Below, piece by piece: positions 5,427 through 61,468 of a DNA stretch of 64,000 bases (positions within the stretch are counted from its first letter, which is position 1; each line of letters opens with the position of its first letter). The notes under the pieces are model-generated. The model searched no databases. It worked only from the letters and a program-made list of their open reading frames with translations, and was not told the origin of the DNA. The stretch is taken from contig NC_073400.1 of NCBI RefSeq assembly GCF_028641065.1, positions 32,798,001-32,862,000 of the forward strand, in the 5' to 3' direction. The stretch is from Leucoraja erinacea. Taxonomy: Eukaryota. The position numbers were made by a program, and so were the translations under genes.

Positions 5427-5571
5427 TGAATAGGTGACGTTTCTCGATCCGAATCGTCACCTATCCATGTTCTCCACAGATGCTGCCTGACCCGCTGAGT
5501 TACTCCAGCACTCTGTGTACATGGCCCACCCCCACCACTATGTCCCACCTCGCCCCCGAGCGCTCACTCAC

Positions 5572-5781
5572 CCCGTTCTTGTCGAAGGCGCGGAACAAGT
5601 TCTCGATGTATTCTGCAGCCTCCTCGTTGTCCAACACCCCGCAGAAGCGCCTGAACTCGTGGAAGAAGAGAGTTCCGCTGGGGCACTCGGTGACAAACTT
5701 CTTGTACCAGTCCTGTAGCTCAGCCACCCCGATCTCTCCCTGCTCCCCGCTTACAGCGTCTACACTCCCTGCCTGACCCAT
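5572..5781 (-). CDS. GUCA1B: Guanylyl cyclase-activating protein 2-like (GCAP2/GUCA1B-like), coding exon 1
   Basis: Encodes MGQAGS...[31 protein letters not shown]...FRAFDKNG: N-myristoylation motif (G2, S6) and the CPSG non-functional EF1 of neuronal calcium sensors. 210 nt, ends at a phase-0 GTGAGT donor. Ortholog versus GCAP2-like paralog is not resolved. Confidence 0.88.
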
Positions 5782-6498
5782 GGCCCCGGCTTGCCCAGGG
5801 ACTGGACTGGACTGGACTGGACTGGACTCTCCTCTCCTCTCCTCTCCCTCTCCTCTCCTCTCCTCTCCCCTCCTCTCCTCTCCTCCCCCCTCCTCTCTCC
5901 CGGCTACCCGCTCTCCCTCTCCTCCTCCCCTCCTGCCTCTATCCTACAACCCCCCTGACCCCTGCGCCCAGATCTTCATGAGGAGTCTGTCCTCTCTCTC
6001 CCCCAGTGTGGGCGGGGGTCAGGTTGGTGTTGTAGGAAGCCCTCCCTCCCTCCCCTCTTGTCCTGCTGTGGCTTGTCCTCCAGCTGTGGCTTGTCCTCCA
6101 GCACACGGCGCTGGTTCTGGGACTGGAGCGCCCGGCGATTATCAATGCGAGATGTAACGTCGTCTCAAACAGGCCAATACCTGCTTAACCTTAACGCGGC
6201 TAAGTTTAGCAGGAGCTTTGCCACGACCTTCCCTGGGCACCTGCTGACCTTCAGGTGGAGGGCGGGAGGCTCCTGTCAGTGGTAGAGCCCATGCCTCACA
6301 GCTCCAGAGACCCGGGTTCAATCCTGACCTTGGTTGCTGCCTGTGTGGAGTTTGCACGTTCTCCCTGTAATAATAATAATAATATATTTTATAGTCATTG
6401 CACATAGGAGCAACGAGATTTGGTTGGCAGCTTCCATCCGACGTCATAACGGGAAGGGGATGGGGGGATGGGTGTACAGGCAGGTGGGGCACATGGTA

Positions 6499-14470: not shown

Positions 14471-14647
14471 ATGATGCCGGTACACCCACGCAGGGTACGC
14501 CTGAAGCCGTGGCTCATGGCCCAGGTTGACGGTGGGCTATTCCCGGGCCTGGTTTGGCTCCATCGAGAAAACAAACGCTTTCAGATTCCGTGGAAACACG
14601 CCACCCGCCACAGCCCACCACAGGACGAGGAGAACACCATCTTCAAG
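14471..14647 (+). CDS. IRF6: Interferon regulatory factor 6, first coding exon (DNA-binding domain)
   Basis: [59 protein letters not shown]|gt closely matches the IRF6 N-terminus. Acceptor AG at 14431-14432. Confidence 0.95.
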
Positions 14648-34138: not shown

Positions 34139-34211
34139 ATGAACATGAATGCAAGGGTGAAAAGCAGAGAAGTCATCGTCCTGCTTTACCTGTGCGGACA
34201 GGTGAACTGCT
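34139..34211 (+). CDS. Unassigned Gla-domain protein copy A, exon 1 (putative signal peptide)
   Basis: MNMNARVKSREVIVLLYLCGQVNC-T|gtaagt. 73 nt; the phase-1 donor matches the phase-1 acceptor of the Gla exon. Hydrophobic core is short. Confidence 0.65.
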
Positions 34212-35551: not shown

Positions 35552-35712
35552 TGTTCGTGCAGAAGCCGGTGGCCAACAGCTTCCTGTCGCGGGTACGCAG
35601 AGCTAACGCTGGTCTGGAGGAGTTGCTAGGCAGCAACCTGGAGAGGGAATGCTTCGAGGAGATCTGCTCCAAGGAAGAGGCCCTGGAGCATTTCGAAGAT
35701 GATCAAAAAACG
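35552..35712 (+). CDS. Gla protein copy A, exon 2 (propeptide and Gla domain)
   Basis: cag|[53 protein letters not shown]|gtgagg. F-16, A-10, L-6, R-4, R-1 carboxylase/furin pattern and LERECxEExC motif. 161 nt, phase 1-0. Confidence 0.93.
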
Positions 35713-42353: not shown

Positions 42354-42378
42354 GAGAACTTCTGGAAATGGTATAAAG
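42354..42378 (+). CDS. Gla protein copy A, exon 3 (25-nt aromatic stack exon)
   Basis: poly-T-gcag|ENFWKWYK-G|gtatgt. This is the 25-nt phase 0-1 FWxxY exon typical of coagulation-type Gla genes. Confidence 0.9.
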
Positions 42379-43300: not shown

Positions 43301-43429
43301 GTTCCCCACTGGTGGAAAATGTTCCAGATGAGCATGGTGCCCATGCCAAGCCAGCGCTAAACTCCACACTGTCGACAAACACCACAGAGGAAGGGGGCGG
43401 ACCGACCGTGTCCCCTCCGCCTGAGCGGG
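43301..43429 (+). CDS. Gla protein copy A, exon 4 (S/T/P-rich linker)
   Basis: cctgcag|SPLVENVPDEHGAHAKPALNSTLSTNTTEEGGGPTVSPPPER-G|gtgagt. 129 nt, phase 1-1, two N-glycosylation sequons, unique sequence among repeats. Confidence 0.75.
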
Positions 43430-44529: not shown

Positions 44530-44687
44530 CTTTCTCCTGCAGTAAACGTGATGTGAAGTTCATCCTCACGTTGGGAAAGCAAGTCCTTGAAATGCAAGAG
44601 CAAGACATTGAGTATCGCCGGAAACGAATTGAACATAAATCGAGACTGGTCAACACAATACAGAAATTCTTACACGATTCAGCCTGA
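44530..44687 (+). CDS. Gla protein copy A, exon 5 (C-terminal helical region and stop)
   Basis: Branch-like ctgac, pyrimidine tract, ccag|(A)FSCSKRDVKFILTLGKQVLEMQEQDIEYRRKRIEHKSRLVNTIQKFLHDSA*. Phase 1. The five exons sum to 546 nt (181 aa plus stop). Confidence 0.7.
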
Positions 44688-52651: not shown

Positions 52652-53464
52652 ATGGAGGCGGTCAGGAAGGAGCTACTGGTCTTTATGACGCAGAAGTATT
52701 TAAGGATGAACCGAAAGAAAGGTTTTTCTAAGTCTCGCTGCTTGCAGCTTGCTGCTGAAATCCTAGCTGTCGACTCCGGGCTGAAGCCTTCCTTCTTGTT
52801 TGATTATTGTGCATCAAATGCAGAACAGATCCAGAACTATGTCCAGGAGCTGTGGAAAACTGGGCTTCTCTCCGAACATCTACACGTCCTCAGCATACAA
52901 GACAACATCTTAATAACAAACTTGAACAGAACCATCAGACACTTGGAACGAACACTGCAGGGAGATGGTGTCCCAGTCATTGATGTTTCATTGCACAGGA
53001 AGACCCCACAACTGGCAGAGTCCTGGGTGACACAGCAGGTCGAGGCCCAAGTGGACATTATTTGGAAGCACCTGAAATCACAGGTAATTCATGCAGAGAT
53101 GAGCACACCAGGTGTTGTTACCACCAGTGAGATTTTCTCACCCGAGTGGAATCTGTGTACAGTGTTTGGGTTTCTCCTTGGCTTCCCTGCTTCATACTGG
53201 TTTGATTTTAACCAGAGTTTTGAGAACTGTCTGGGCATGACTCAACTTCGGGCTTTCTCTGTCTCTGCTATTTGTCCCAGAATCACTGAGAACCTTAAGC
53301 ATCAGATGTACTCATTCAGTGTCCCCGAAAACCTTTATTTGGATTTACAGAGCATGCTGGAGATTTGGTGGAGGAATCTACAATCAGATTTTAACAAGCA
53401 GTCCTCTTTCTCTGATCTCTGCATCGCCACAGAGGTAGTCTGCCTGCCGGGGATTACCCTGTAA
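52652..53464 (+). CDS. C1orf74: UPF0739 protein C1orf74 homolog, single coding exon, 270 aa
   Basis: LAAEILAV..GLKPSFLFDY, WNLCTVFG.LLG.P..Y, NCL, YSFSVP and F.DL motifs. Acceptor tttag at 52635 and AATAAA at 53514. Lies downstream of IRF6 on the same strand, as in human. Confidence 0.93.
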   Translation: MEAVRKELLVFMTQKYLRMNRKKGFSKSRCLQLAAEILAVDSGLKPSFLFDYCASNAEQIQNYVQELWKTGLLSEHLHVLSIQDNILITNLNRTIRHLERTLQGDGVPVIDVSLHRKTPQLAESWVTQQVEAQVDIIWKHLKSQVIHAEMSTPGVVTTSEIFSPEWNLCTVFGFLLGFPASYWFDFNQSFENCLGMTQLRAFSVSAICPRITENLKHQMYSFSVPENLYLDLQSMLEIWWRNLQSDFNKQSSFSDLCIATEVVCLPGITL

Positions 53465-55771
53465 ATATTCTGTACAACAACACGTCTTTAATTAAAAACA
53501 TAAATTCCCCCTTAATAAAGATAGACTCGGCTTGTACTCGCTAGAATTTAGTTTGATGGGGGATCTTATAGAAACGTACAAAATTCTTAAGGGGTTGGAC
53601 AGGCTAGATGCAGGAAGATTGTTCCCGATGTTGGGGAAGTCCAGAACAAGGGGTCACAGTTTAAGGATAAGGGGGAAATCTTTCAGGACCGAGATGAGGA
53701 AAAACATTTTTCACACAGAGAGTGGTGAATCTCTGGAATTCTCTGCCGCAGAAGGAAGTTGAGGCCAGTTCATTGGCTGTATTTAAGAGGGAGTTAGATG
53801 TGGCCCTTGTGGCTAAAGGGATCAGGGGGTATGGAGAGAAGGCAGGTACAGGATACGGAGTTGGATGATCAGCCATGATCATATTGAATGGCGGTGCAGG
53901 CTCGAAGGGCGAATGGCCTACTCCTGCACCTATTGTCTATGTTTCTAACTGCATGCAGAGTACAATGAAGAAAAATAACACCTAAAGAAATATTAAGGTT
54001 GCTGTTGAAACGTGGTCATAGAATCATAGAGTGATACACCACGGAAACAGGCCCTTCAGCCCAACTTGCCCACACCGGCCAACATGCCCCAGCTACACCA
54101 GTCCCACCTGCCTGCGCTTGGTCCCTATCCCTCCAAACCTGTCCTATCCATGTACCTGTCTACTTGTTTCTTAAACGTTGGGATAGTCCCGACATCAACT
54201 ATCTGCTGTGGCAGCTGGTTCCATACACCCACCACCCTTGGTGTGAAAGTTACCCCTCAGTAACCTATTCCAGGATGTCACTACACCCACTGCCCTAGCA
54301 AGCAATACATTTGTGGTTGCTTGTGTGAAAACTGCCTTCCAAGAAACCAAAGATACATAGCACAGGAACAGGCCCTTCAGCCCACAATGTTTGTGCCGTA
54401 CATGATGCCAAGTTAATCCAATCGCCTCTGCCTCCACTTCCATGTGCCTGTCTAAAAGCCTCTTAAAGGACGAGCCTTCCCAGTTTTCTTTCTTCATCTC
54501 CTCTCTTGCAGCCGAGTGATTTATCTTCATCCAAATCACACCTGACATTTTGGGCAGTTTGGAAAACATCCACTGACCAACAGCAAGTGAAAGCGAATGA
54601 AACTGAGATGGGCTTGTCAGCCCAGAACCACTCCTACACCACACCTTCACAAGAGTCCATCTGAAGAAGGGTCTTGACCGAAACATCCTCCATTCCTCCT
54701 CTCCTTCCCGCCTGTCCCGTTGAGTTACTCCAGCATTTTGTGTCTATCATCGCAAAATAAATATTTATGAAAGATTATAAAGACATAGCAAATAGTTGCA
54801 GGGGTAGGCTGTTCGGCCCTTCGAGCCAGCACAGCCATTCAATGTAATCATGGCTGATCATCCACAATCAGTACCCCGTTCCTGCCTTCACCCCATATGC
54901 CTTGATTCCGTTAGCCCTAAGAGCTGAATCTAACTCTCTCTTGAAAACATCCAGTGAATCGACCTCCACCGCCTTCTGCGGCAGAGAATTCCACAGATTT
55001 ACAACTCTCTGGGTGATTATATAGACACCAGCCAGTATCTCATAAAATATTCATTTTATTTGCATCTTACAAATAAACGTACATGAAATTTCAGTTGCCG
55101 TTTTTAAAGTCAGTAAATGTTCAATGTGAATACTGTCACTGCTTTGTCTACTTTAACAGTGAACATAATCTACAGCCGTGATAATATTATTGTGAATTTA
55201 ATCATATGCCGTATTTACTGCGAGCGCATCACTACTTTACTACTTCAATGTGGAGAACATGGATAGGTGACGTTTCACAGAGTGCTGGAGTAACTCAGCA
55301 GGTCAGGCAGCATCAGTGGAGAACATGGATAGGTGACGTTTATCAGAGTGCTGGAGTAACTCAGCAGGTGCAGCAGCATCTATGGAGCTAAGGAAATAGG
55401 TAACGTTTCGGGCCGAAACCCAACAGGTTTGGAGGGATTTGGACCACACGCTGGCAGGTGGGACTAGTGTAGCTGGGGTATTGTTGGCCAGTGTGGGCAA
55501 GTTGGGCCGAAGGGCCTGTTTCCACACTGTATCACTCTGACTCTGTTTAAGATTTTGACCTACACCCAGAAGTGTACAATGTTGAAATTGCTTTTACTGG
55601 AAGTGGTGTTTTGGCATTTGGGTAGCAGCCTGATCGAGCTATTGATTAACTAGATATTTGCGGTAAATAAAACCAGTGGCCTCACTGACAAAATATTGAT
55701 CAGCATCCGTTTCAAAACTATTCCTCGCGAATCCTCCGTCGTCTTTCACAGCCCGAGGAAAAGATTGAGGA

Positions 55772-55844
55772 ATGAACATGAATGCACGGGTGAAAAGCAG
55801 AGACGTCATCGTCCTGCTTTACCTGTGCGGACAGGTGAACTGCT
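55772..55844 (+). CDS. Gla protein copy B, exon 1
   Basis: MNMNARVKSRDVIVLLYLCGQVNC-T|gtaagt; two substitutions versus copy A. Confidence 0.62.
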
Positions 55845-56765
55845 GTAAGTAACTGTAAACACCATTTAAGGTAGACAAAAATGCTGGAGAAACTCAGTGG
55901 ATGAGGCAGCATCTTGGAGCGAAGGAATAGGTGGCGTTTCGGCCCTCCAGCCTTTGACCTCATTGAAACATATAGAACAGTCTTCTTGTTCCAAAAGGAA
56001 CTGCAGATGCTGGAAAATCGAAGGTACACAAAATTGCTGGAGAAACTCAGCGGGTGCAGCAGCATCTATGGAGCGAAGGAAATAGGCAACGTTTTCGGGC
56101 CGAAACCCTTCTGGGTTTCAGCCCGAAAACATTACCTATTTCCAGAAGGGTTTCGTCCCGAAACGTTGCCTATTTCCTTCGCTCCATAGATGCTGCTGCA
56201 CCCGCTGAGTTTCTCCAGCAATTTTGTGTACCTTAGAACAGTCTTCTTCTTGTGTATGGCGTGCACAGCCTAAAGTTGTCGGACAACTTGTTCTATTTGA
56301 TCTTATTTGATTGTGCACACTGAGTTGATTGCATTCGCCGAAACAGGGCTGACCAGGTGAAGGTTGCAATCTGCCACCCCATATAGTATAATGAAAGGCC
56401 TGGATAGAGTGGATATGGAGAGGATGTTTCCACTATTGGGAGAGTCTAGGACCAGAGGTCACAGCCTCAGAATTGAAGGACGTTCCTTTAGGAAGGAGAT
56501 AAGGTGGAATTTCTTTAGGGTGGTGAATCTGTGGAATTCTTTGCCACAGACGGCTGTGGAGGCCACAAGTCAATGGGTATATATGAAGGCAGAGATAGAT
56601 AGATTCTTGATTAGTACGGGTGTCAGGGGTTAGGGGGAGAAGGCAGGAGAATGGGGTTGGGAGGGAGAGATAGATCAGCCGTGATTGAATGGCGGAGTAG
56701 ACTCGATGGGCCGAATGGCCGAATTCTGCTCCTATCCTAAGGCCTTCTGACCTTTTCTCCCTCAG

Positions 56766-56928
56766 TGTTTGTGCAGAAGCCCGGTGGCCAACAGCTTCCT
56801 GTCGCGGGTACGCAGAGCTAACGCTGGTCTGGAGGAGTTGCTAGGCAGCAACCTGGAGAGGGAATGCTTCGAGGAGATCTGCTCCAAGGAAGAGGCCCTG
56901 GAGCATTTCGAAGATGATCAAAAAAACG
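56766..56928 (+). CDS. Gla protein copy B, exon 2, with two +1 homopolymer insertions (assembly error or pseudogene)
   Basis: Identical to copy A except TTC>TTT, an extra C (aagcccggt) and an extra A (A7 run). Nearby intron also has scattered extra bases. Confidence 0.8.
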
Positions 56929-59154
56929 GTGAGGCATCAGCAGCAGAGGCATATGAGCGTGGAAACACAGGCCCTTCGCCCATCTCTCTCATGTACACGG
57001 CTCTCAAGAAATGTTGCTATGGTCACAAGGAATATAGTGTGTAGAATTAGGCCATTCGGCCCATCAAGTCTACGCTGCTATTCATCATGGCTTGATCTAT
57101 CTCTCCCTCCTAATCCAATTCTCCTGCCTGCGCCCCCTAATCTCTGACACCCGCACTATTCAAGAACCTATCGAGTCGTAGAGTCATAGAGTCATACAGT
57201 GTGGAAACAGGCCCTTCGGCCCAACTTGCCCACACTGGTCAACATGTCCCAGCTACACTAGTCATTGAGTGATACAGTGTGGAAACAGGCCCCTCAGCCC
57301 CACCTGCCCACACCTGCCCACATGTCCCAGCTACACTAGTCCCCACCTGCCCATGTTTGGTCCATATCCCTACAAACCTGTCCTATCCATGTTAAACAAA
57401 AAAGCTGGAGAAACTCAGCGGGTGCAGCAGCATCTATGGAGCGAAGGAAATAGGCAACGTTTCGGGCCGAAACCCTTCTGGAAATAGGCAACGTTTCGGG
57501 CCGAAACCCTTCTTCAGACTGGGCGGGGGTGGGCGGGGACAAGAAAGGGAAAAGGAGGAGGAGCCCGAAGGCTGGGGGATGGGAGGAGACAGCAGGGGGG
57601 CTGAGGAAGGGGAGGAGACAGCAACGACTAACAAAATTGGGAGAATTCGATGTTCATGCCCCCGGGATGCAGACTCCCCAAACGGAATACGAGGTGCTGT
57701 TCCTCCAATTTATCCACTGTATGACTCTATGACTCTACGACTCGATAGGTTCTGTCCATGTCCTATCCATGTACCTGTCTAACTGTTTCTTAAATGTTGG
57801 GATAGTCCCAGCCTCAACTACCTCCTCTGGCAGCTCGTTCCATACACCCACCACCCTTTGTGTGAAAATGTCACCCCTCAGATTCCTATTAAATCTTTTC
57901 CCTTTCACCTTGGACCTATGTCCTCTGGTGCTCTGGTTTTCTCCCATATTCCAAAGGGTTGTAGGTTAATTGGCTTCTGTAAATTGTTTCCTTAGTGTGT
58001 GTAGGACAGTAGGTAGTTAGTGTAGGTGGTGTCATGATGTATGGGTGATCCTTTGGCCATAAGGAATAGTAGAATGAGGCCATTCGGCCCATCAAATCCA
58101 CCACCATTCAATCATGGCTGATCTATCTCTCCCTCCTAACCCCATTCTCTTGTCTTCTCCCCATAATCTCTGCCACTTGAACTAAACAAGAATCTATCTA
58201 TAGTAGACACAAAATGCTGGAGTAACTCAGTAGGACTGGCAGCATCTCTGGAAAGAAGGCATGGGTGACATTTTGGGTCGAGACCCTTCTTCAGTCAGGA
58301 GAGTGGGTGGGACAGAGATAGAATGTAGTCGGAGACAGTCAGACTGGTGGGAGAACTGGGAAGGGGGAGGGAATGGAGAGAGAGGCAAAGCAAGGGCTAC
58401 TTGAAGTTAGAGAAGTCAATGTTCATACCTCTGGGGTGTAAGCTGCCCAAGTGAAATATGAGGTGGTGTTCCTCCAATCTATCTATCTCTGGTTGGCATG
58501 GACTCGGTGGGGCCAAAGGCCTTGTTTCTATGCTGCGTTTAAGAAGAACTGCAGATGATGGAAAAATCGAAGGTAGACAAAAAAAAACTCAGAGGGTGAG
58601 GCAGCATCTAGAAACATAGAAACATAGAAATTAGGTGCAGGAGTAGGCCATTCGGACCTTCGAGCCTGCATCACCATTCAATATGATCATGGCTGAGCAT
58701 CCAACTCAGTATCCTGTACCTGCCTTCTCTCCATACCCCCTGATCCCTTTAGCCACAAGGGCCACATCTAACTCCCTCTTAAATATAGCCAACGACCTGT
58801 GGCCTCAACTACTTTCTGTGGCAGAGAATTCCAGAGATTCACCACTCTCTGTGTGAAAAATGTTTTTCTCATCTCGGTCACCTATTCCTTTGCTCCATAG
58901 ATGCTGCCTCACCCGCTGAGTTTCTCCAGCATTTTTGTCTACCTTCTGTTTCCATGCTGTATCATTCAACTCAACTAAACTGGCTCTGGGGCAGTCGGTA
59001 GGAGGCTGCCAACCAAGGAATTCACAGGAGGGATTAAACACTCCGACGCACAGTTTCATATTAGCCGAGCTTCCAGCAACATGCAGGTCTCCTGAATAAC
59101 CCAGCGAGACTGCTTCTTCATGTATCATAAATGAAAAGGTTTTTTTTTTTGCAG

Positions 59155-59179
59155 GAGTACTTCTGGAAACGGTATAAAG
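59155..59179 (+). CDS. Gla protein copy B, exon 3
   Basis: gcag|EYFWKRYK-G|gtatgt, 25 nt. Confidence 0.85.
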
Positions 59180-60130
59180 GTATGTGTGTTTATTGATCGC
59201 ATTCAACACACAGGTTAGTTATTAATGATCCTCACAGTCTGAAGTGGACTCGTGCATTCATTAAGATATTATATTATATACCATTATATGGTTATAACAG
59301 GCTGTGAAACACGGGGCATCATATTAATGTGCTCGTTACTGAATTGTCATCGTTTTGAGGCATCTGTCGGGAGCGGATGGGAAAGTGGGATAACATAGAA
59401 TGGGCGATCACTGGTCGGCGTGACATCGATGGGCCGAAGGGCCTGTTTCTGTGCTGTATCTCTAAACTAAACCAAACTTAATTAAATCACAGAACGATAC
59501 TATATCGATTCGGTGGGCCGAAGGGCCTGTTTCCATGCTGTATCCTTTCAATCAATCAGTCTTGCTATTGAGGGAGTGCAGCGTAGGTTCACCAGGTTAA
59601 TTCCCGGGATGGCGGAGCTGACATATGATGAAAGAATGGATTGACTGGGCTTGTTTTCACTGGAATTTAGAAGGATGAGAGGGGATCTTTTAGAAATATA
59701 CACAATTCTTAAAGTATTGGACAGGCTAGATGCAGGAAAAATGTTCCCGATGTTGGGGAAGTCCAGAACCAGGGGTCACTGTTTAAGAATAAGGGGTCGG
59801 CCATTTAGGACTGAGACGAGGAAAAACGTTTTCACCCAGAGAGTTGTGAATCTGTGGAATTCTCTGCCACAGAAGGCAGTGGAGGCCAATTCACTGGATG
59901 TTTTCAAGAGAGAGTTAGATTTAGCTCTTAGGGCTAACGGAATCAAGGGATATGGGGAGGAAGCAGGAACGGGGTACTGATTGTGGATGATCAGCCATAA
60001 TCATATTGGATGGCGGTGGTGGCTCGAAGGGCTGAATGGCCTCCTCCTGCACCTATTGTCTATGTTTCTATCCCTCCAACCCCTGCCTGTTCCAGTATCT
60101 GTCCCAATGCCACCTCTACTGTTCCTGCAG

Positions 60131-60259
60131 GTTCCCAACTGCCGGAAAATGTTCCAGGTGAGCATGGTCCCCATGCCAAGCCAGCGCTAAACTCCACACT
60201 GTCGACAAACACCACAGAGGCAGGGGGCGGACCGACCGTGTCCCCTCCGCTTGAGCGGG
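60131..60259 (+). CDS. Gla protein copy B, exon 4
   Basis: SQLPENVPGEHGPHAKPALNSTLSTNTTEAGGGPTVSPPLER-G|gtgagt, 129 nt. Confidence 0.72.
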
Positions 60260-61310
60260 GTGAGTCTCCCACACTGATTCACACAAACACACACAGAGTG
60301 CTGGAGTAACTCAGTAGGTCAGGCAGCATTTGTGGAGAACGTGGACAGGTGACTTATCAGGTTAGCATCCTCTTCAGAATGGGCCGTTTGAGTCTGAAGA
60401 AGGGCATTGACCCTGAAATATCACTGTGAAACGTCACCTATCCATGTTGTCCACAGATGCGGCCTGACCCGCTGAGTTACTCCAGCACTCTGTGAAATGT
60501 CACCTATCCATGTTCTCCACAGATGCTGCCTGACCCGCTGAGTTACTCCAGCACTCTGTGAAATGTCACCTATCCATGTTCTCCACAGATGCTGCCTGGC
60601 CCACTGAGTTATGGTGCAGCAGCATCTATGGAGCTAAGGAAAGAGGCAACGTTTCGGCATGAAACCCTTCTGGAAATAGGCAACGTTTCGGGCCGAAACC
60701 CAGAAGGGTTTCGGCCCGAAACGTTGCCTATTTCCTTAGCTCCATAGATGCTGCCTGACCCGCTGAGTTACTCCAGCACTCTGTGAAACGTCACCCATCC
60801 ATGTTCTCCACAGATGCTGCCTGACCCGCTGAGTTACTCCAGCACTCTGTGAAACGTCACCCATCCATGTTCTCCACAGATGCTGCCTGACCCGCTGAGT
60901 TACTCCAGCACTAGTCATTGTTTGGTTTGATGTTTAGTATTATCTGATCGGATTGGATCGAATGCAAAACAAATATTCTCGCTTGGTCCACAATCACAAT
61001 AATACTTTATTAGCCAAGTATGTTTTGCAACATACGAGGAATTTCATTTGCCGTACAGTCATACCAATAAAACGCAACAGAACGCACAAAACACATCCAC
61101 CACAGTGACTCCTCCACATTCCTCACTATGATGGTAGGTGAAAAAAAGCCAACCTAACCAACAACAGTAAACGTGATTATGAATAAACTTAAACCTAGTT
61201 TGGAAAAAATGCAACAAATGTGTTAGTACAATAATGGTTTAACGTTGCAAATTTGGTCTTTAATTGTTGCCTGTAAAGATTCTGACTTCCATCTTTCATC
61301 CCGCCACCAG

Positions 61311-61468
61311 CTTTCTCCTGCAGTAAACGTGATGTGAAGTTCATCCTCACGTTGGGAAAGCAAGTCCTTGAAATGCAAGAGCAAGACATTGAGTATCGCC
61401 GGAAACGAATTGAACATAAATCGAGACTGCTCAACACAATACAGAAATTCTTACAAGGTTCAGCCTGA
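61311..61468 (+). CDS. Gla protein copy B, exon 5
   Basis: (A)FSCSKRDVKFILTLGKQVLEMQEQDIEYRRKRIEHKSRLLNTIQKFLQGSA*, 158 nt, frame and stop retained. Confidence 0.68.

Follow-up and report, generated by a model that had tools for sequence, protein, structure and literature searches.

A Gla protein of cartilaginous fishes with a helical tail resembling those of C4b-binding-protein-like chains in skate

Human C4b-binding protein (C4BP) combines alpha and beta chains via their C-termini (PMC11251186), and its alpha chains form homo-heptamers without beta (PMC9084231). The 57-aa core of C4BPA is encoded by one last exon (PMC2118859), and the complex gets to dead cells via protein S and phosphatidylserine (PMC2212022). 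The skate locus described here is comparable in outline. Like human C4BP (alpha7 beta1 plus ProS), the encoded protein has a single terminal-exon helical tail, and a Gla domain is its proposed phosphatidylserine link. Unlike human C4BP and protein S, the Gla domain is carried by the putative core-forming chain itself, which lacks CCP, EGF and laminin-G modules.

The window comprises the whole 64,000-nucleotide stretch of DNA that was analysed, contig C24 32798001-32862000, which database names assign to little skate. Five exons on its forward strand form copy 1 of the Gla gene:

34139-34211, + strand: exon 1, predicted signal peptide, phase-1 donor
35552-35712, + strand: exon 2, propeptide ending RVRR plus Gla domain, Cys17-Cys22 pair, PF00594 E 8.9e-17
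42354-42378, + strand: exon 3, the 25-nt aromatic-stack exon of the Gla domain
43301-43429, + strand: exon 4, Ser/Thr/Pro-rich linker, predicted disordered
44530-44687, + strand: exon 5 (tail exon), phase-1 terminal exon of 52 codons ending in TGA, one predicted helix

Joined, these exons give a 546-nt frame identical to RefSeq XP_055511047.1 (P0003, 181 aa), which is labelled 'coagulation factor X-like'. A pyrimidine tract and an AG acceptor precede exon 5 at 44530, and use of the next AG downstream (exon start 44543) would bring a stop after 4 codons. Among four runs examined, one contig of X5, a likely RNA run of a related organism, splices exon-4 sequence to the 44530 acceptor. Run X1 yielded an unspliced piece over exon 5, and raw RNA runs X23 and X24, of which about 5% each was read, gave zero reads on it. 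With its RefSeq-identical frame and the splice-joining contig, 44530-44687 is the genuine terminal exon that the original prediction had proposed, and it holds the skate residues quoted there. Two other readings of exon 5, as an intronic chance frame and as a part used mainly in a C1orf74 fusion, were rejected.

The layout of P0003 thus runs from signal peptide and propeptide through the Gla domain and a Ser/Thr/Pro linker to one 46-residue helix, and its predicted signal peptide marks it as a putative secreted protein. AlphaFold models the tail as a single helix over residues 135-180, with block pLDDT of 92-97 over 141-180, and the linker as disordered (pLDDT below 50 at residues 87-124). The exon-5 helix is about 6.5 heptads long, each heptad having hydrophobic residues at two neighbouring positions. 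Mid-helix, the skate tail has R-R-K-R (44617-44628) and Rhinoraja has R-Q-K-R, a motif missing from the other species; it may be a furin-type site, at which the skate tails might be clipped.

The Gla domain of P0003 scores 61.4 bits against PF00594 (cut-off 27; E 8.9e-17). Its family features comprise a Cys pair, a propeptide, a basic cleavage site and the ten canonical Glu at mature positions 6, 7, 14, 16, 19, 20, 25, 26, 29 and 32. By analogy with known Gla families, gamma-carboxylation, propeptide cleavage and Ca-dependent lipid binding would be expected. In the omega loop, Gly occupies position 4 in nine of ten family sequences, and the FW pair, listed as highly conserved in PMC9669250, is absent from three of four shark models. 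Judged from these residues, the Gla domain alone might bind lipid weakly.

P0003 shares with factors VII, IX and X, protein C, protein S and Gas6 the signal peptide, propeptide, Gla exon and 25-nt aromatic-stack exon. It differs from vitamin K-dependent Gla proteins in having a linker and coiled-coil tail instead of EGF, kringle, protease or laminin-G modules or a transmembrane helix, and the four EGF and two laminin-G domains of protein S and Gas6 have no counterpart in it. A transmembrane PRRG type was rejected. Searches for CCP/Sushi modules found none, the Gla domain being the only one recognised. By the features compared, the skate protein belongs to the Gla family and falls outside PF18453, the CCP proteins and the relatives of protein S/Gas6. 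A Foldseek search with the full model returned Gla domains only, none at E<=0.001.

The Gla domains that look most alike are found in small Gla-EGF proteins. Those from rays (P0007, P0015), together with the coil-tailed P0017 and P0032, have similar signal peptides and propeptides and branch apart in the Gla tree, with weak support. This related ray gene type carries either EGF modules (P0007, P0015, P0019) or a shorter coiled-coil tail (P0017, P0032). P0017 matches the tail profile weakly (E 0.0009, 162 proteins compared), and in Hemitrygon the RefSeq accession of P0007 is adjacent to that of P0005. EGF exons of the P0007/P0015 type were not found in the 724 kb of skate examined. The P0017/P0032 type is a possible second Gla-coil chain, or the possible donor of the Gla cassette.

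The Gla-linker-helix architecture is present in Rhinoraja, Hemitrygon, Narcine, Heterodontus, two species of Scyliorhinus, Rhincodon, Cetorhinus and Callorhinchus. A phmmer search of 1.84 billion representatives, with the best 150 of 782 matches at E<=0.001 examined, and a tail-profile search of 7,994 candidates constituted a limited survey, in which no relatives outside cartilaginous fishes were found; the ten proteins retrieved by the tail profile all come from this group. In the Gla tree (66 columns, 38 rows), a weakly supported branch (89/72) sets the ten family Gla regions apart. All ten family members scored carry the helix complete, with 6-7 heptads. Across the seven non-skate tails, two adjacent heptad positions are 98% and 93% hydrophobic and two more are partly hydrophobic. 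Wide hydrophobic faces of this sort favour bundles of more than two helices. The tail would very probably oligomerise. In the Rhinoraja ortholog (P0004) the linker exon occurs three times; arm length varies, and the Gla domain and tail are kept.

The confinement of relatives to cartilaginous fishes in these limited searches, together with the lack of the aromatic FW pair in several shark models, would also suit a Gla oligomer that acts in the manner of matrix Gla protein, attaching to calcium phosphate in cartilage or plasma and very little to membranes. Such a mineral or matrix role appears highly improbable, given a Gla domain and exon layout of the clotting-factor type and look-alike Gla domains that are nearest in small Gla-EGF proteins.

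A link between the Gla tail and the C4BP core was originally drawn from a motif, D-V-K-x-x-L-x-x-x-K-x-x-L-E with a preceding Cys, held to be shared with human C4BP. Orthologs do not conserve it: the skate residue is kept at Cys133 in 0/7, D137 in 2/7, V138 in 0/7, K139 in 2/7, L142 in 3/7, K146 in 2/7, L149 in 5/7 and E150 in 6/7. Nor did comparison with the C4BP oligomerisation domain bear the motif out, as Pfam C4bp_oligo (PF18453) matches none of nine Gla tails. The same model matched none of six CCP proteins or exons and neither of two CCP tails, and in the genome it gave two weak matches (E 4.2 and 6.4), neither at Gla or CCP tail exons; HMMER filters discard most matches above E 0.1. 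Because the C4BP-like tail exons of skate also miss PF18453, the Pfam result says little about a shark-type C4BP. In the PDB at E<=10, no C4BP core chain was matched by the tail, the nine-tail Gla profile (A2), A3, the profile built from three skate CCP tails (A4), or the alpha exon, the presence of the core chain in the PDB copy being assumed. The best PDB matches of the family tail profile are designed helical barrels. In the ESM Atlas, queries with both tails met only unnamed or unrelated clusters under 0.9.

The human core has the cysteines C498 and C510 (PMC9084231), and the skate tails have neither. The two conserved inter-chain Cys were not present in any tail type: the Gla tail's Cys133 is unconserved, and the alpha and two-CCP tails are without Cys. 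A disulfide-linked core was rejected. Compared with the human C4BP core, the skate tails are each predicted as one helix of 46-54 residues and lack a PF18453 match. A run of the form LM...LP...D in the skate alpha exon resembles one that we take to precede the long helix of the human alpha core. If real, this run would tie the skate exon to mammalian C4BP and move the register of the original prediction by 10 residues; the PDB searches gave no support for the tie.

As the original prediction had suggested might be found, the contig also carries an RCA-type CCP cluster and an IRF exon. Sushi exons, whose PDB relatives are CCP modules of CR1, CR2, factor H, DAF, MCP and C4BP, are clustered at C24:33.12-33.42 Mb, the cluster beginning 0.28 Mb from the Gla tail exon. 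A PFKFB gene stands directly before it (33.07-33.09 Mb), with the Gla gene beyond PFKFB and outside the cluster. Presumably, this PFKFB-CCP order mirrors human PFKFB2-C4BPB-C4BPA. A CD34 search gave no match on C24. Two cluster genes end in a helix exon, 0.46-0.53 Mb from the Gla tail:

C24:33346533-33373926, + strand: C4BP-alpha-like gene (L056-L059), RefSeq 'C4b-binding protein alpha chain-like'
C24:33301764-33308461, - strand: two-CCP gene (L051, L052), predicted secreted

The alpha-like gene has half a CCP1 exon and a split CCP2, followed by six full CCP exons; its last exon, in phase 1, is at 33373724. The predicted structure of its tail is a single 54-residue helix (mean pLDDT 92), and the evidence for a splice from the last CCP exon to this tail comes from the RefSeq models in three skates and from the phase of the splice sites. 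The same tail occurs in Rhinoraja and Amblyraja models with 9 and 11 Sushi matches. The two-CCP gene, for which no database model was found, opens with a predicted signal exon; CCP1 and a split CCP2 follow, and the last exon, in phase 1, is at 33301939, all phases being compatible. As in human C4BP, such tails occur in skate on one multi-CCP chain and on one short CCP chain, both from a PFKFB-linked cluster. Each of the Gla, alpha and two-CCP tails is encoded by a phase-1 last exon of 52-66 codons, and each of the three genes has a predicted signal peptide; the Gla tail, with 52 codons in a single terminal exon of a predicted secreted protein, compares with about 57 for the human core (PMC2118859).

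Some further features of these genes were observed. The alpha-like gene repeats its last CCP to a different extent in each of three skates, whose RefSeq models have 6, 9 and 11 Sushi matches; the little skate model is without its N-terminus. The two-CCP gene has the layout of a C4BP beta-like chain minus one CCP and is arranged head to head with a further CCP gene. At C24:33311310-33325046 (+) is a CCP gene built of near-identical repeated modules, with inverted, partly broken duplicates at 33394419-33418459 (-).

When A2 was run over 18,485 six-frame ORFs from 724 kb, the alpha exon was the best non-self match (E 0.072) and the two-CCP exon came fifth (E 0.78). With a profile without skates, the two-CCP exon ranked first among non-self ORFs (E 0.31) and the alpha exon second (E 0.54). 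A shark-and-chimaera-only profile placed alpha second among non-self ORFs (E 2.3) and the two-CCP tail outside the top 12, with 2 of 91 coil controls reaching the latter there. A heptad-pattern scan of 9,127 ORFs, mostly non-coding and scanned with a pattern designed after the tails had been seen, ranked the alpha, two-CCP and three Gla tails 1-5. The Gla-CCP tail scores would not be significant at genome or PDB scale; the weight of the result is that the two exons named beforehand by the hypothesis come out on top.

Controls were 91 coil segments drawn from 60 exons of skate intermediate filaments and myosins, most of them dimeric and taken from related genes. Gapless scores of the CCP tails were 36.3, 32.9 and 35.6, against a control mean of -2.1 (sd 5.7, maximum 8.1). 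No control reached the pattern score of any core family member, and in the reverse comparison 10 of 11 Gla-type tails stood above all 91. The sole higher-order natural coil tried, a single roughly joined thrombospondin-type pentamer, scored -4.6. Alignment of A2 with A4 by hhalign gave E 5.8e-5, a probability of 65.5% and 52 gapless columns, and single tails gave E 0.0017 and 0.0066. Hence, the Gla tail resembles the skate C4BP-like tails, in register, beyond generic natural coil controls. This is where the proposed Gla-C4BP link fared better: its motif evidence fell to the orthologs and to the Pfam profile, and the wider idea stands on the in-register match to the skate's own C4BP-like tails.

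The composition of this signal has to be weighed. Plain shuffles never reached the observed score (0/3000), heptad-class-keeping shuffles did so in 155/3000 and 98/3000, and shuffles keeping the hydrophobic/polar pattern in 48/3000 and 46/3000. The best offset was 0 for all three CCP tails, with offsets of 7 nearly as good (alpha: 25 vs 31), and Gla-CCP tail identity ranged from 5/49 to 12/52. Skate Gla tails were outside the 12 best ORFs of a HMMER profile of CCP tails, and single-sequence genome searches with two CCP tails gave self matches only. Designed helical barrels outscore the CCP tails against the same Gla-tail profile. As most of the tail signal is heptad pattern, and as designed barrels score higher, the tails may instead have converged on a barrel-type heptad. 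The Gla tail would then be an independent coiled coil whose likeness to the CCP tails and linkage with them are coincidental, and whose partner is unrelated to complement. Low identity, the marginal heptad-shuffle tests and the barrels as best PDB matches speak for this, and linkage alone is expected because IRF6, C1orf74 and the RCA cluster are likewise linked in humans. Against it, two independent CCP genes, predicted beforehand, come out on top among 18,485 ORFs and share both register and exon phase, and the thrombospondin-type coil, as one roughly joined control, scores only -4.6. On balance, convergence seems improbable, and the three tail types likely share an origin by shuffling of a phase-1 exon.

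A helix type in common is no proof of mixed assembly. In the favoured reading, which has perhaps an even chance, the Gla subunit co-assembles with C4BP-like chains, replacing the beta-chain/protein S link. In such an assembly, the Gla chain would be secreted, carboxylated and cleaved at its propeptide as in other Gla proteins, and its helix would insert in a ring of alike helices from the C4BP-alpha-like and two-CCP chains. The core ring would be non-covalent, because none of the three tail types has a conserved Cys. The linker would extend the Gla domain outward as an arm, and the Gla domain with Ca would bind exposed phosphatidylserine, placing the CCP arms where complement deposits. In humans this task falls to the beta chain together with protein S (PMC11251186, PMC2212022), whose joint role the skate Gla protein may fill. 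Extended to the complex as a whole, this leads to the tentative proposal, which we rate slightly below even, that cartilaginous-fish C4BP is a Cys-free, three-chain protein in which multi-CCP alpha, two-CCP and Gla chains meet in one helical core.

Alternatively, the Gla chain could form only its own ring, a multivalent Gla 'bouquet' on phosphatidylserine membranes that acts as an opsonin or clotting-factor competitor, with a tail that may still share its origin with the CCP tails. This reading, rather unlikely in our estimate, agrees with the complete 6-7-heptad helix in all ten family members, the position of the gene beyond PFKFB and outside the CCP cluster, its three recent tandem copies in skate, and the beta-free homo-heptamers of human alpha chains described in PMC9084231. 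It accounts less well for a common heptad type retained despite low identity. Net charge over the last 55 residues is mostly basic in Gla tails (-1 to +5) and stands at -2 and 0 in alpha tails, a weak hint of mixing. A complex prediction with four tail copies (score 0.07, mark 0.32, alignment unused) counts neither way.

Should the three-chain C4BP be correct, membrane targeting would be built into the oligomer, having arisen independently of the beta-chain/protein S contact of mammals or before it. Co-assembly would also mean that sharks and mammals tied complement control to dying-cell membranes twice, by different means, and would bear on the origin of the C4BP-protein S bridge between clotting proteins and complement. 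Moreover, C4BP-alpha-like and beta-like chains are indicated in cartilaginous fishes, where the Pfam core model misses them. The Gla proteins themselves make up an undescribed vitamin K-dependent family, whose members databases call 'factor X-like', 'Gas6-like' or uncharacterised. A full-text literature search, with most subscription journals and supplements outside its scope, returned no paper on a Gla-linker-helix family or on shark C4BP, and the accessible portion of PMC6683126 uses the word 'shark' 0 times.

In skate the gene exists as three recent tandem copies, with tails 100, 94 and 86% identical. These copies and their neighbours are placed as follows:

55772-61468, + strand: copy 2 of the Gla gene, tail 94% identical, Gla exon 56766-56927 frameshifted in the assembly
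C24:32890041-32890193: tail of copy 3, outside the window
52652-53083, + strand: first 144 codons of C1orf74, a neighbour outside the Gla protein
14498-14647, + strand: IRF DNA-binding-domain exon, a synteny marker

The copy-2 Gla exon (56766-56927) has two one-base insertions, both lengthening homopolymer runs; the frameshift reflects either a pseudogene or an assembly error. Between copies 1 and 3, changed codons number 7 non-synonymous and 2 synonymous in the tail and 7 and 0 in the Gla exon, and no selection is claimed because the changes are too few. Two RefSeq models are chimeras: P0001 splices C1orf74 codons 1-144 onto copy-2 exons 3-5 (52652-61468), and P0008 joins C1orf74 to the copy-2 Gla exon. 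The C1orf74 frame itself runs on for 200 codons or more. Between Gla copies sits an IRF exon that contains a stop (C24:32868756-32868905), and a second C1orf74 copy follows them at C24:32896664-32897095. With flanks 92-98% identical, the IRF/C1orf74/Gla repeats are read from their sequence as a recent segmental duplication. The IRF exon at 14498-14647 is provisionally named IRF6 from human gene order, and an EF-hand protein exon at 5503-5943 (-) of the window presumably encodes a guanylyl cyclase-activating protein.
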